A DNA stretch of 64,000 nt from IMG/VR virus record IMGVR_UViG_3300031227_000023, positions 1-64,000 of that record. The stretch is one strand, 5' to 3'. The stretch's first letter is position 1, and every line of letters begins with the position of its first letter. The notes beneath the pieces were generated by a model, which was not told where the DNA came from, searched no databases, and worked only from the letters and a program-made list of their open reading frames with translations. Of this stretch, positions 3,336 to 64,000 are shown in pieces. The translations under genes and the position numbers were made by a program. The stretch comes from a virus.

Positions 3336-4009
3336 GCCAGCCCCACTTCCACAACACCGCCTTCTGCCATGCGCACGCCAAGCTGCATGGCCTGCTGCAA
3401 CACATCATCAGCACCAACCGGAACCGTTGCCACCCCTTCTTCTTCAAGCACCTGCGGCCCTGTCTGATACTGATACCCAAAAAATAATTCATCACGCCCT
3501 TCCACACGCCACGTGAACCGGCACGCACGCACAACCGGATCTTCCTTGTGTTCATGCGCATGGTACAAGGCACCCCACAAATTCAATTCACGCGCCGGGT
3601 CTTCATCACCGCTTTCCACAGACCCAAGATAATTGTTGACAACGTATTGCAGCCCACGCGGCAGATCCCACCCGAACATCTGCGCATATTCACTGGCAAG
3701 ACCAACAGCAACAAGTGCCATCCAATCACGCCACGCATCAGACGTGATCCGTTCCCCAACAATTGCATCCCCAATAACAGGGTGCTGCAACACCCCCTTC
3801 ATTGATTCCATGGCACCCTGCCACAACTGATCACCCAACCGGTGCAAGTGTGTCCTGAAATGCACAGCCCATTGGCCCTGATCAACACTGGCCAAATCCA
3901 TCTTCACAGAACCGGGAACAACCACCCCCAGGAACCGTTCAGGAAACGCTTCATGAATTCCCCTTGCTGCCCTTATCAAGTCTGCCTGTTCCATTGTCAT
4001 TGCCCGCAC
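3332..4009 (-). CDS. Hypothetical phage protein
   Basis: 225-aa ORF with start/stop overlap to the next gene. Confidence 0.65.
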   Translation of the reverse strand: MRAMTMEQADLIRAARGIHEAFPERFLGVVVPGSVKMDLASVDQGQWAVHFRTHLHRLGDQLWQGAMESMKGVLQHPVIGDAIVGERITSDAWRDWMALVAVGLASEYAQMFGWDLPRGLQYVVNNYLGSVESGDEDPARELNLWGALYHAHEHKEDPVVRACRFTWRVEGRDELFFGYQYQTGPQVLEEEGVATVPVGADDVLQQAMQLGVRMAEGGVVEVGLA

Positions 4010-60931: not shown

Positions 60932-61291
60932 TTATTCGACCCGTTCGAAATCCCACCCAAGTTCATCTTCAAGAATTGCAGGATGCACGCCAACCCCGTA
61001 GTACTCCATGTACCACCCATTGGTCACAACCACAAGATGCGCCAACGATGCAGCAACCACATCAGGATCTTCAACCATCGAAAATGGAACCTGATCTTGT
61101 GTGCCAATCGGTGGGTCTGCATCAATCACATCCTTCACCTGCACCGCAATCGTTTCCCCGCCTTCCACAATGACATCATCCCCTTCAACGTAGAAAAAGA
61201 CAGCCGTGCTGCCATCAATTTCAACCTGCCAATATTCACCCTGTGGCACCCCGCCTGAATGTTCCCTGAATTCAATCTTGACCTTTGCCAT
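60932..61291 (-). CDS. Small acidic protein, candidate immunity protein for the MuF C-terminal domain
   Basis: 119 aa, very acidic, starts 10 nt after the muF stop. Confidence 0.55.
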   Translation of the reverse strand: MAKVKIEFREHSGGVPQGEYWQVEIDGSTAVFFYVEGDDVIVEGGETIAVQVKDVIDADPPIGTQDQVPFSMVEDPDVVAASLAHLVVVTNGWYMEYYGVGVHPAILEDELGWDFERVE

Positions 61292-61300
61292 TGGTCTTCC

Positions 61301-64000
61301 TTACTTGTACGCGCCGGTGTTAATTGATCCCAGCACACGCGTGAAATGGTCAACGTCTTGCATCACCTTCCCCGCAGACTTCCCATCAAAATATTCCATG
61401 CCCATGGATGTCACTTCTGTTGCATCCAAATCCTTCACGCTTCCACCACGTGGCGTTTTCACAGTCCCTTCCCTGTAATACAACCTACCAACATAGTGGT
61501 CTGTGAATTCAGGATTACCCCGTTCGACTTTCACAACAATTTCATTCAACTTATATGCTTTGTTTCTTGTCAAATAACGCAGCGGGGTTTCCCCTCCTAC
61601 AAATCCATCAGCATCTACTTTGGCGCGCTGCCACAGGAACCACTGCCCATTCTTCAGTGAATCAGAATTGAGTTCATCAAAATGATGTCCATATTCGTGC
61701 AGGAACTTGCGCCGTACTTCTTCCTTTGACCACTCCGCATATTTCCGAACACGCACGTTTTTTGTTCCAATTGAAATAAACGCACGTTCATCAACCCCCT
61801 GGCTTGCTATTGATTTTGCAGACTCATAGAACGCCCCGCTTTTTGTTGGATCAACATCAACCCTGACAGCAGGCAACCGGCCACGAACAACACCACGACC
61901 GTACCGCGTCACATAATCATAAATCGCACACCCTTCTTCAATCCCATCACGAACAGGCTTTGGAATTTTTGACCATTGTGCATAAGCCCCGGCATCATCC
62001 AAAAACTGTGCTTTGATCCTGCCAAACAGCCGGGCTTGTTCAGGTATCGTTTCAACATACGCAAGGGATTTTTCTGCAATCTCACCAGCAACCTTGTGGT
62101 GCGCGACACTATCTAGTGCAAGAGTTCCGGAGGATTCCTTTCTAATCAAATCCTTCAATACCCACTCCCCACGCTTTCTGATCTGATCCACCCTGCCACT
62201 TTTCCTTGCCGACCCCCAACGCGCATCAACAGCCGGTGGCCTTGTACTTGACAACGGGCCAAGCACTTCATCACCACGCAAGCCTTCTTCAGGAACCAAC
62301 TGCCATGGCTGTTCATGCGGCTTCAACGGTGCAGGTACAGCAGGCTTGGGCACAGCAGCGGCAGTCCTGGCAGCAGCCGCACCCCCTGCCCATGGACCCA
62401 ACCCACCGGGCACCGCAGTCTGTATGGCCTTCTGATTGTAAATAACAGTGGTCCTGCATAGCGGGTGGTACGGTGGCAAACTCATGCCCAAATCACGCAT
62501 TTCCTTCACGGTGGAATACTGCGAAGCATACTTGCCCGCATCCCATGTTCCCGCACCCGGCTTTGTGACAGTCATGATACTGTTGAACTGCCCCTGTTTA
62601 TTCATCACCCCCCAGTCAGCACCCCGCCTGCGCACCCATGGCATTTCAAATTTAATATCTTCAGGATCAGCCAAGTTGTCAGTTGACGTTTGGTGTTCAT
62701 GCGCAACCTCAACATCTATTACTTTACCATGGATGTACCGGCAATTATGAACAACAACCCCTTCTGCAATGTATGTTGGGTCATCTTCCACTTCAAGGTT
62801 GTACACGTAACATGCACGCCGCACCTTGCGAACGGCAACAACCTTTTCTAGCCTAGTGCCCCTGCAATACTCTTCAACACTACGTTCTCCGGATTCCCTT
62901 GATTCAATTGCTCGCCCGTAATCCTGATCAGTTTCCACCCCATGCCTGCAATTGCTTGTTCTTTTCTTTCCGTCGCATCCTCCCTGAACCCTTCCCTGTG
63001 CCAATACTCCCCGTCCACCTCGATTGCGAGACCGTGCTCCGGTAGAAAGAAATCTACATTGAATCGGTCGACGGGCTTCTCTAGCTCGTAATTGATTCGA
63101 TTCTTTTCCAACACTTCCGCAACGATTTCTTCCAACCCCGTTGCCCCCTTCCCAATCAAAAGGCATCTGCGCGAACAATGCTGCCTCTTGACCACTTCCG
63201 ATTTCTTGATAACAAACTTTTTCCCGCACTCCTCGCACGTTATCGTTTCCCTTTGATCCTTCCACCGGCATGCCCGTGAACACGTAGTGCGGGTTTTCCC
63301 GGAAAAAAATTCCACTGGCTTTATTCTGAACTCCCCCCCACATACAACGCACCGCTTCACCAACAATGCCGGATTCAACCCCTTCCTTCCAGCTTCCACC
63401 CTGCACTGATCCGAACAATGCTTCATCTGCCCCCGTTTCACATAACACTGCCTTGCCGTGAATGCCTTGCCGCACCATTGACAAACCATTTCCACATTGT
63501 TCATCCGATATTTGTTGTAACAATCCGTGCCGCAATACTGAGCCCTGTTCCCCACCGCTTGAAACGTCTTTCCGCAACCCTTGCATTTCTTCTCTATAGA
63601 CAAGGCTGTCTCCTTTCCGCAATTCTCCAATAGGTCTCCATCCATCTGCGGTAAGGATACGATGTTTTTTTGTTGCAATCAAATGATTGCCGGACTGGAG
63701 TTGCACTTCAATCAACTCTTCATCAACAAATCTTTTCGATACAGCCAACACGTGCCTCAACACCCCTGATCCCGTCACGACAACATCACCCGCATCAATG
63801 CTGTCTATACGTTTTTCCCCTAACTCTGTTTTTACTTTTGTTTCGCCAGAAAAACACCATTCTGTGGTTCGTTCATCCATCACCGCATAGGCAATTACCT
63901 CTGTAATGCCCGCTTCCATGAAGCCGTGCAACTGCGCCCGTGAACGGGAACGCGCAACCAAGTTGTGCGCCACCACCGTCCAATAATTCTTCATCTGCTG
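61301..64000 (-). CDS. MuF/SPP1-gp7-like head morphogenesis protein (5'-truncated) with intein and C-terminal HExxH metallopeptidase-like domain
   Basis: After removing the intein: AVMDERTTEW-CRYIHGK...PPYHPLCRT MuF motifs; C-terminal LHEYGHH...EVTSMGME; frame is open to the window edge. Confidence 0.88.
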   Translation of the reverse strand, partial: QQMKNYWTVVAHNLVARSRSRAQLHGFMEAGITEVIAYAVMDERTTEWCFSGETKVKTELGEKRIDSIDAGDVVVTGSGVLRHVLAVSKRFVDEELIEVQLQSGNHLIATKKHRILTADGWRPIGELRKGDSLVYREEMQGLRKDVSSGGEQGSVLRHGLLQQISDEQCGNGLSMVRQGIHGKAVLCETGADEALFGSVQGGSWKEGVESGIVGEAVRCMWGGVQNKASGIFFRENPHYVFTGMPVEGSKGNDNVRGVREKVCYQEIGSGQEAALFAQMPFDWEGGNGVGRNRCGSVGKESNQLRAREARRPIQCRFLSTGARSRNRGGRGVLAQGRVQGGCDGKKRTSNCRHGVETDQDYGRAIESRESGERSVEEYCRGTRLEKVVAVRKVRRACYVYNLEVEDDPTYIAEGVVVHNCRYIHGKVIDVEVAHEHQTSTDNLADPEDIKFEMPWVRRRGADWGVMNKQGQFNSIMTVTKPGAGTWDAGKYASQYSTVKEMRDLGMSLPPYHPLCRTTVIYNQKAIQTAVPGGLGPWAGGAAAARTAAAVPKPAVPAPLKPHEQPWQLVPEEGLRGDEVLGPLSSTRPPAVDARWGSARKSGRVDQIRKRGEWVLKDLIRKESSGTLALDSVAHHKVAGEIAEKSLAYVETIPEQARLFGRIKAQFLDDAGAYAQWSKIPKPVRDGIEEGCAIYDYVTRYGRGVVRGRLPAVRVDVDPTKSGAFYESAKSIASQGVDERAFISIGTKNVRVRKYAEWSKEEVRRKFLHEYGHHFDELNSDSLKNGQWFLWQRAKVDADGFVGGETPLRYLTRNKAYKLNEIVVKVERGNPEFTDHYVGRLYYREGTVKTPRGGSVKDLDATEVTSMGMEYFDGKSAGKVMQDVDHFTRVLGSINTGAYK
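62848..63603 (-). CDS. Zinc-finger-repeat plus Vsr/DUF559-type putative homing endonuclease nested out of frame (+1) inside the intein
   Basis: Four CxxC...CxxxC repeats, then E...VDF......AIEVDGEYWH...GWKLIRI; TTG start 6 nt after AAAGGAG. Confidence 0.88.
   Translation of the reverse strand: MSIEKKCKGCGKTFQAVGNRAQYCGTDCYNKYRMNNVEMVCQWCGKAFTARQCYVKRGQMKHCSDQCRVEAGRKGLNPALLVKRCVVCGGEFRIKPVEFFSGKTRTTCSRACRWKDQRETITCEECGKKFVIKKSEVVKRQHCSRRCLLIGKGATGLEEIVAEVLEKNRINYELEKPVDRFNVDFFLPEHGLAIEVDGEYWHREGFREDATERKEQAIAGMGWKLIRITGEQLNQGNPENVVLKSIAGALG
63610..63616 (-). promoter_or_regulatory. Shine-Dalgarno site for the nested endonuclease
   Basis: AAAGGAG-ACAGCC-TTG on the minus strand, within the intein codons for K-G-D. 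Confidence 0.7.

Follow-up and report, generated by a model that had tools for sequence, protein, structure and literature searches.

Introduction

Homing endonucleases (HENs) that are encoded in a frame of their own inside an intein have been described for phage and cellular genes. In actinophages, Gosselin, Arsenault and Gogarten (bioRxiv 10.1101/2025.01.02.630785) reported inteins with separately encoded HENs; those on the antisense strand are of the LAGLIDADG and VSR-like types, and the only out-of-frame case on the sense strand is EndoVII-like (frame 3). In their study the inteins of minor-capsid (MuF-like) genes carry only such non-canonical HENs, an invasion by free-standing homing endonuclease genes (HEGs) was proposed, and Supplemental Table 1 contains the entry 'minor capsid, MuF-like ... 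VSR -1 ORF' (ORF, open reading frame) for Gordonia phages, e.g. Angelicage. Phillips, DeSimone and Gogarten (bioRxiv 10.64898/2026.09.14.751524) described a cyanobacterial dnaX intein with a sense +2 LAGLIDADG ORF, a Shine-Dalgarno (SD) sequence and frame-specific selection; both preprints credit Gorbalenya 1998 for separately framed intein endonucleases. Here we analyze a related arrangement in the MuF-like minor head protein gene of a virus. The gene lies on a stretch of 64 000 nt (in the following called the window), which covers positions 1–64000 of the 89,915-base virus record IMGVR_UViG_3300031227_000023. The element in question is most probably a non-canonical mobile intein that holds two genes in one DNA stretch, one for a cis-splicing intein and one, in the sense-strand +1 frame, for a homing nuclease that is translated independently.

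Three further systems are relevant for comparison. Dassa et al. 2009 (PMC2677866) described fractured genes, in which split inteins flank free-standing Vsr-like or GIY-YIG HEGs. I-Bth0305I (PDB 3R3P) is presented by Taylor et al. 2011 (PMC3239194) as an EDxHD homing endonuclease encoded by a group I intron in the recA gene of Bacillus phage 0305phi8-36. Arsenault et al. 2025 (PMC11855218) described the ShiLan domain, a hidden out-of-frame HNH endonuclease in a stop-free insertion of a phage methylase.

The window intein resembles the Gordonia MuF inteins in that it is contiguous, has an unstructured and stop-free centre and carries a Vsr-like/EDxHD-type HEN in another frame of the same DNA. 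We checked Angelicage directly and found an antisense ORF of 291 amino acids (aa) opposite the stop-free intein frame. However, the Gordonia Vsr-like gene is antisense, does not have the four zinc ribbons and occurs at another MuF site (N/CRC, the slash marking the splice junction), whereas the window nuclease lies in the sense +1 frame, contains zinc ribbons, has its SD sequence inside the GD block of the intein and is found at a DERTT../C site. With the dnaX intein the window shares a sense overlapping ORF between the splicing domains, a disordered in-frame region, a confidently folded out-of-frame product, an SD sequence and purifying selection on the HEN frame, but the dnaX ORF belongs to the LAGLIDADG family, is offset by +2 and resides in a cellular host gene instead of a phage structural gene. 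The fractured genes have in common with the window the Vsr-like (later EDxHD) superfamily, the phage or metagenome origin and the position of the HEG in the endonuclease slot of the Hint domain, and among the structures compared the window splicing domain comes closest to gp41-1, a split intein of this fractured-gene group. In those genes, however, a stop and a restart interrupt the intein, whereas in the window the intein frame stays open across the whole HEG and splicing would occur in cis; from 64906 to 61301 the host frame has no interruption, and we rejected the fractured or split-gene class for the window. I-Bth0305I gives the best sequence-profile and structural match to the nested catalytic domain, but it is intron-encoded and its DNA-binding N-terminal region is unlike the four zinc ribbons. 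ShiLan resembles the window in having a host frame without stops over the length of an out-of-frame endonuclease ORF, but it lacks a splicing domain and encodes an HNH nuclease.

A complete out-of-frame HEG, an unbroken intein frame with a centre predicted to be disordered, a nuclease predicted to fold and selection on the HEG frame place the window element among the non-canonical inteins. A preliminary description of this DNA, which was made from the sequence alone, knew of no description of such an arrangement; this claim of novelty has to be withdrawn in view of the separately framed intein endonucleases in both preprints. The general arrangement is already known, and the sense +1 zinc-ribbon Vsr-like variant appears to be what is new. 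In a literature search of limited scope we found no description of a contiguous intein that contains a zinc-ribbon Vsr-like/EDxHD gene in the sense-strand +1 frame, and none of one nuclease family in all the topologies described below in one host gene.

A nuclease gene nested in the intein of a head gene

The features of the locus and the evidence for each of them are listed in Table 1. In the frame of the head gene the intein matches the Pfam families Intein_splicing (5.5e-12) and Hint_2 (9.4e-9). Five lineages (see below) agree in all of the splicing residues C1, T62, H65, D359, H370 and N371, and blocks F and G are conserved across lineages; the +1 residue is C, but T in lineage L006. An N-terminal Cys together with TxxH, a C-terminal His-Asn followed by Cys and a predicted Hint fold formed from both ends are the features of a class-1 intein. 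In a Foldseek search against the PDB, the splicing domain matched best the naturally split gp41-1, followed by the MchDnaB-1 and Msm DnaB inteins (E 1e-7 to 1e-6). Judged by these matches, the head-gene frame encodes a complete class-1 splicing domain, which is presumably active.

Table 1. Coordinates of the MuF-like gene, its intein and the nested nuclease gene in the window (AF2, AlphaFold; pLDDT, predicted local distance difference test)
Feature	Position	Strand	Evidence
MuF-like minor head protein precursor gene, 1201 codons	61301..64000, continuing past the window end to ATG at record position 64906	minus	ORF; PHROG matches
C-extein: end of MuF core (PPYHPLCRT), Ala/Pro linker, ~330-aa extension with HEYGHH motif	61301..62743	minus	phrog_13868 positions 251-356 = C-extein residues 1-101
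Class-1 intein, 371 codons: Cys1 (CFSGET, 63856), TKKH (block B), VYNLEVEDDPTYIAEGVVVHN, VVHN/C (62744), +1 Cys	62744..63856	minus	Pfam Intein_splicing, Hint_2
N-terminal splicing region, intein residues 1-91	63584..63856	minus	AF2 10-residue block means 85-94 (residues 1-90)
Intein-frame filler, residues 92-324, without stops, poorly conserved, predicted disordered	62885..63583	minus	pLDDT <50
C-terminal splicing region, intein residues 325-371	62744..62884	minus	AF2 10-residue block means 80-94 (residues 331-371); <50 segment ends at 324
Nested +1 gene, 251 aa, zinc-ribbon and EDxHD/Vsr-like homing endonuclease (predicted); TTG start, TAG stop 62850-62848	62848..63603	minus	DUF559, fold model
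Four CxxC...CxxxC zinc ribbons, residues 7-147, presumed DNA-binding module	63163..63585	minus	Cysteine conservation; weak PDB profile matches
Nuclease catalytic domain (predicted), residues ~155-245, D184/E195/D197/H202	62869..63141	minus	Aligned to I-Bth0305I catalytic domain and Vsr
SD sequence AAAGGAG within the intein (R)K-G-D codons of the conserved GELRKGD block, 6 nt ahead of TTG 63603	63610..63616	minus	Sequence

The nested +1 frame is open from 63678, which is 25 codons upstream of the TTG at 63603. Its protein matches the Pfam family DUF559 with 27.8 bits (cutoff 20.6) and, more weakly, MTES_1575 and Vsr. A HMMER search of 1.8 billion representatives yielded 5002 relatives at E<=1e-3, most of them 230–400 residues long. 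By tblastn against GenBank phages only free-standing homologues were found (in mycobacteriophages and one Microcystis phage), and a word-index protein search gave no match, which reflects the limits of the index. In a 50-member family alignment the 12 Cys of three ribbons are invariant, and the same holds for D184, E195, D197 and H202. The ribbons show weak PDB profile matches to zinc fingers of the MYM/FCS/YacG type. When the family profile was compared to the PDB, the best match was 3R3P, the catalytic domain of I-Bth0305I (E 1.5e-15), followed by a DUF559 structure and by Vsr 1CW0 (2e-4). The AlphaFold model of the nested protein has a pLDDT of 94.8, and Foldseek ranked 3r3p first (template modelling score 0.76) and Vsr 1cw0 next. 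The sequence match and the conserved acidic and His residues on a predicted Vsr-type fold correspond to the EDxHD/Vsr-like family. Profile and fold model identify the nested ORF as a genuine gene for an EDxHD/Vsr-like nuclease, which presumably acts in homing.

These results agree with the preliminary description in the coordinates and splicing blocks of the intein, in the 251-aa +1 ORF with its four zinc ribbons and Vsr/DUF559-like nuclease, and in the proposal that this gene fills the endonuclease slot of a contiguous intein, since it lies between the splicing blocks and the host frame is uninterrupted. The centre of the intein, which had been called featureless, is the segment predicted to be disordered, and the profile matches separate by frame, with Hint_2/Intein_splicing in the intein frame and DUF559 in the +1 frame.

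Recurrence of the layout and related topologies

The window sequence recurs in many salt-lake metagenome runs (12 or more). Contigs from four other such runs span both frame junctions with 0 gaps and no variant positions listed. Using the nested protein to search viral and metagenome contigs, we found the +1 layout in five further lineages (L001, L002, L003, L006/L007 and L077). The nucleases of these lineages are 30–42% identical to that of the window and show the same +1 offset, and the inteins are located at the same MuF-like site, D(E/Q)RT../C ... HN/C. Together with the window (WIN) they make up six sense-class lineages, the nested frames of which are open for 235–303 codons; in L077 the host frame contains 0 stops.

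The nuclease family occurs in MuF inteins in three other topologies as well. In the antisense topology (L004, L005, L074, L076, L078, L079 and L080) the nuclease is encoded on the plus strand opposite the stop-free intein frame of a host gene on the minus strand, at the site D(D/E/N)R(T/V)/CFP...LVHN/C in MuF-like genes. For six of these loci we counted stops in the antisense frames, and in each case exactly one frame had 0 stops compared to 10–31 in the others. These environmental-phage loci match the 'VSR -1 ORF' class of Gosselin et al., with zinc ribbons present in the environmental nucleases. An in-frame topology is found in L014, L020, L068, L088 and L131. In the fourth topology (L010:1729-3799 and L081:3-3054) an N-intein is in frame with a zinc-ribbon/DUF559 nuclease that ends in a stop, and a separate ORF, which overlaps the 3' end of the nuclease, encodes the C-intein (VYNLAV…VVHN/C) and the C-extein; the host genes are divergent MuF(-portal) genes. 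By their layout, these two loci are split-intein fractured genes in which the HEN is fused to the N-intein (IntN) and not free-standing.

In a tree of the nucleases five of the six sense-class proteins cluster (Shimodaira-Hasegawa-like approximate likelihood ratio test, SH-aLRT, 82), with WIN, L001 and L003 grouped at 96. Nucleases of the antisense class group in a separate clade (99), which also includes two free-standing members, and those of the in-frame class are only distantly related. Since the topologies cluster in the tree, topology would be a lineage trait; the tree is short, was calculated by a quick method and has long branches, and this reading is therefore suggestive only. It suggests that the +1 state is a long-lived trait which persists through deep divergence and not a fleeting intermediate. 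We lean, by a small measure, towards the wider view that sense +1 dual coding is old and stably inherited in a zinc-ribbon EDxHD clade (~35–42% identity) in which the host frame is always stop-free and the SD sequence comes from the GD block in most members, and that the antisense, in-frame and N-fused split sister clades in the same head gene form a series from which the invasion of a mini-intein by a free-standing HEG and the transitions to canonical and split inteins could be reconstructed. The preliminary description had proposed the window layout as a precursor of split inteins. A link to the fractured genes remains plausible from the gp41-1 match and from L010 and L081, but the idea is already contained in the preprints and in PMC2677866, and the tree favours a long-lived trait.

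Selection on the two reading frames

Next, we analyzed the stop codons of the intein frame. This frame acquires a stop wherever the third position of a nested codon is T and the next codon begins with AA, AG or GA. The nuclease sequence contains 79 junctions at which this could happen, and not one of them has T, compared to 46 of 172 third positions (27%) elsewhere in the ORF. About 20 intein-frame stops would be expected, and the probability of observing 0 is 2e-11 with the codon usage of the neighbouring genes and 6e-8 with that of the ORF itself. In neighbouring genes the equivalent frame holds roughly 4.5–9.5 stops per 100 codons. Stop avoidance was also observed in L001, L002, L003 and L006 (0/60 to 0/83 each). 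As a family control we compared the sense-class ORFs with free-standing and antisense homologues: host-frame stops are absent from 6 of 6 sense-class ORFs, while 15 free-standing or antisense homologues contain 6–60. The intein frame is kept stop-free by selection. This had been proposed in the preliminary description with a chance estimate of 6e-6, which pointed in the right direction but was too mild and is therefore conservative.

The nested frame shows a different kind of constraint. Between lineages, its amino-acid identity is 29–42% compared to 17–31% for the filler (5 lineages), and identity at nested codon positions 1 and 2 is 43–59% compared to 27–46% at position 3. The contrasts between codon positions and between frames across the five lineages show purifying selection acting on the nuclease frame, as far as can be read from aligned sequences; selection would thus operate at the protein level on the nuclease, and the filler need only stay open. 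Conservation confined to the intein frame, which had been named beforehand as a finding that would speak against a nested gene, was not seen.

Probable translation of the nuclease and proposed model

Start signals similar to that of the window were observed in other sense-class lineages. In L003, AAGGAG is followed by 6 nt and TTG, in L077 GAGGAG precedes GTG/ATG, and L001 has the weaker GGAG/AAGGGA. SD-like motifs precede 8 of 19 neighbouring genes, and several of these motifs are of the AAGGAG or GGAGG type. The nested frame of L002 and L077 is open for just 1–3 codons ahead of the start, which rules out a frameshift fusion there. Because a strong SD sequence at canonical spacing precedes TTG 63603, internal initiation at this codon is the best-supported route by which the nuclease would be produced.

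According to the model that we propose, frame 0 would encode two halves of a splicing domain joined by a disordered linker of ~233 residues, the sole requirement for which would be the lack of stop codons. The precursor would be translated straight through, and the intein would excise itself and restore the head protein. From the +1 frame the 251-aa protein would be produced by internal initiation at TTG 63603, driven by the SD sequence from the K-G-D codons of the intein. Its zinc ribbons would recognize DNA and its EDxHD/Vsr-like domain, which is of the I-Bth0305I type, would cut, most likely in an intein-less muF gene at or near DERTTEW/CRY, and repair would copy in the intein and the HEG as one unit (homing). 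Selection would act on the amino acids of the nuclease and, at its synonymous sites, against codons that place a stop in the intein frame. Most likely the layout originated when a free-standing nuclease gene invaded a mini-intein, and it would then have become a stable trait of the lineage.

Alternative explanations

An ordinary in-frame intein endonuclease could appear in the +1 frame if two compensating indels had been introduced during sequencing or assembly, and in-frame DUF559 endonucleases do exist in MuF inteins (the five in-frame loci named above). However, the contigs from four other salt-lake runs are gapless over both junctions, the +1 offset recurs in five further lineages with only 30–42% nuclease identity, the in-frame nucleases form a separate distant clade with just 0–1 ribbons, and an intein frame that is not translated would give no reason to avoid stops at 79 of 79 junctions. 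On the basis of the independent assemblies, the recurrence of the layout and the stop-avoidance controls we rejected the assembly-indel reading, the probability of which is negligible; the four independent assemblies show no indels. Alternatively, ribosomes in the intein frame might undergo a programmed +1 frameshift and thereby make a fusion of N-extein, IntN and nuclease that functionally resembles the natural in-frame IntN-nuclease fusions of L010 and L081. The 25 open codons upstream of TTG 63603 in the window and the weakness of TTG as a start codon are in line with this, but no such fusion is possible in L002 and L077, where a stop lies 1–3 codons before the start, the SD sequence is strong and canonically spaced, and family members begin ~6–9 residues before the first Cys, as the product starting at TTG does. 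We consider frameshifting very improbable.

The nested ORF might also be an inactive relic, with selection remaining on the splicing frame only and an element that no longer homes. Decay of the HEG after fixation is predicted by homing-cycle theory, and in L007 the nested ORF is truncated by one substitution compared to L006 with the host frame still open. In the window, however, the ORF is undamaged, retains every invariant catalytic and zinc-binding residue and gives a fold model of very high confidence, the codon-position pattern indicates purifying selection in the nested frame across lineages, and six lineages keep 235–303 codons open where unconstrained sequence would gather stops, so that we regard a relic as unlikely. 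Finally, the nuclease may be active but serve another function than the homing of this intein, such as phage-phage competition, degradation of host DNA or repair, the intein being a safe harbour. Most family members are free-standing phage genes, and DUF559/Vsr-like domains are also found in repair and restriction contexts. Against this stands the occurrence of the nuclease family in MuF inteins in four topologies, which speaks for nuclease and intein as functional partners, and I-Bth0305I, the closest solved relative, is according to PMC3239194 a homing enzyme that cuts beside its insertion site. A function unrelated to homing is in our estimate distinctly unlikely, and we prefer the reading of the locus as a cis-splicing intein with its own, separately translated homing nuclease.

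Several observations weigh against this preferred reading or parts of it. The target site of the nuclease at DERTTEW/CRY is an assumption. A clear SD sequence is missing in 2 of 6 lineages (L002 and L006), the start codon is a weak one, and the passage of frame-0 ribosomes may disturb internal initiation. A scan for promoters and terminators around the nested gene revealed nothing above chance; with no promoter-like site nearby, expression of the nuclease presumably depends on the late muF transcript. The sequencing runs that carry the window sequence include no RNA run. L007 differs from the near-identical L006 by one C>A change (position 3420), which turns a nested TAC into TAA (Y>stop) and a host P into T. 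This change represents either HEG decay with the intein kept or a low-coverage sequencing error; a nested nonsense mutation that leaves the intein frame intact means that the nuclease can decay. With respect to MuF membership of the host, a Pfam search of the N-extein and C-extein of the window gave no match, Phage_Mu_F included.

Implications

The main value of the locus lies in the clean selection signal, in the ribosome-binding site inside an intein block and in the multi-topology MuF series. Selection would act at two levels on one DNA stretch, on the amino acids in one frame and on the mere absence of stops in the other. The arrangement supports the view of intein origin in which the splicing domain came first and the endonuclease later. 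With one nuclease family in four MuF topologies, the series offers a good system for studying the transition from HEG to domain, the origin of split inteins and the translation of an internal gene in a heavily translated late mRNA. Gene callers normally report one of two overlapping genes, and such nucleases are therefore under-annotated. For intein engineering, a splicing domain related to gp41-1 with a disordered insert of ~230 residues is of relevance.

Host gene and further observations

The MuF-like gene comes directly after a portal-like gene (phrog_12), the end of which it overlaps. Each of the two exteins matches phrog_13868, a family of unknown function, with the N-extein ending at position 249 and the C-extein beginning at position 251 of the family. 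As the exteins abut there, the insertion of the intein is precise and intein-less homologues exist. Searching viral contigs for related loci with the C-extein gave no relatives, and tblastn of the whole precursor against GenBank phages produced a single short Hint match only. The Phage_Mu_F profile is passed by the MuF-intein hosts L014, L081 and L088, which have the other insertion site; the scores of L003 and L020, which have the insertion site of the window, fall slightly short of the cutoff. The window host protein contains the PPxHxxCR motif. From its position after the portal gene, the PPYHPLCRT motif and the Phage_Mu_F scores of related hosts we refer to the window host as 'MuF-like'.

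The C-terminal ~330 residues of the host protein (window 61301-62315, minus strand), which follow the Ala/Pro-rich linker, hold a FLHEYGHHF (HExxH-like) motif and gave no match in Pfam or PHROG. The MuF-like gene is followed by an acidic ORF of 119 aa (60932-61291).

Among the hosts of in-frame DUF559 inteins, L014:1471-6039 contains additional NUDIX and DUF3626 domains and L088:1-3633 an ADP-ribosyltransferase (ADPrib_exo_Tox/ART) domain; these look like effector or toxin modules fused to MuF. In L068:664-3495 we observed two Intein_splicing/Hint stretches (about residues 302-391 and 485-921), the second of which includes DUF559, and this host gene may hold two inteins. Weaker relatives of the nuclease domain occur in L064, L067, L117 and L144, which encode long proteins with 4–9 DUF4379 treble-clef zinc-finger repeats and an MTES_1575-like nuclease. 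Their architecture combines a different zinc-finger array with a Vsr-like nuclease, and the sequences come from bacterial metagenome-assembled genomes and metagenomes.

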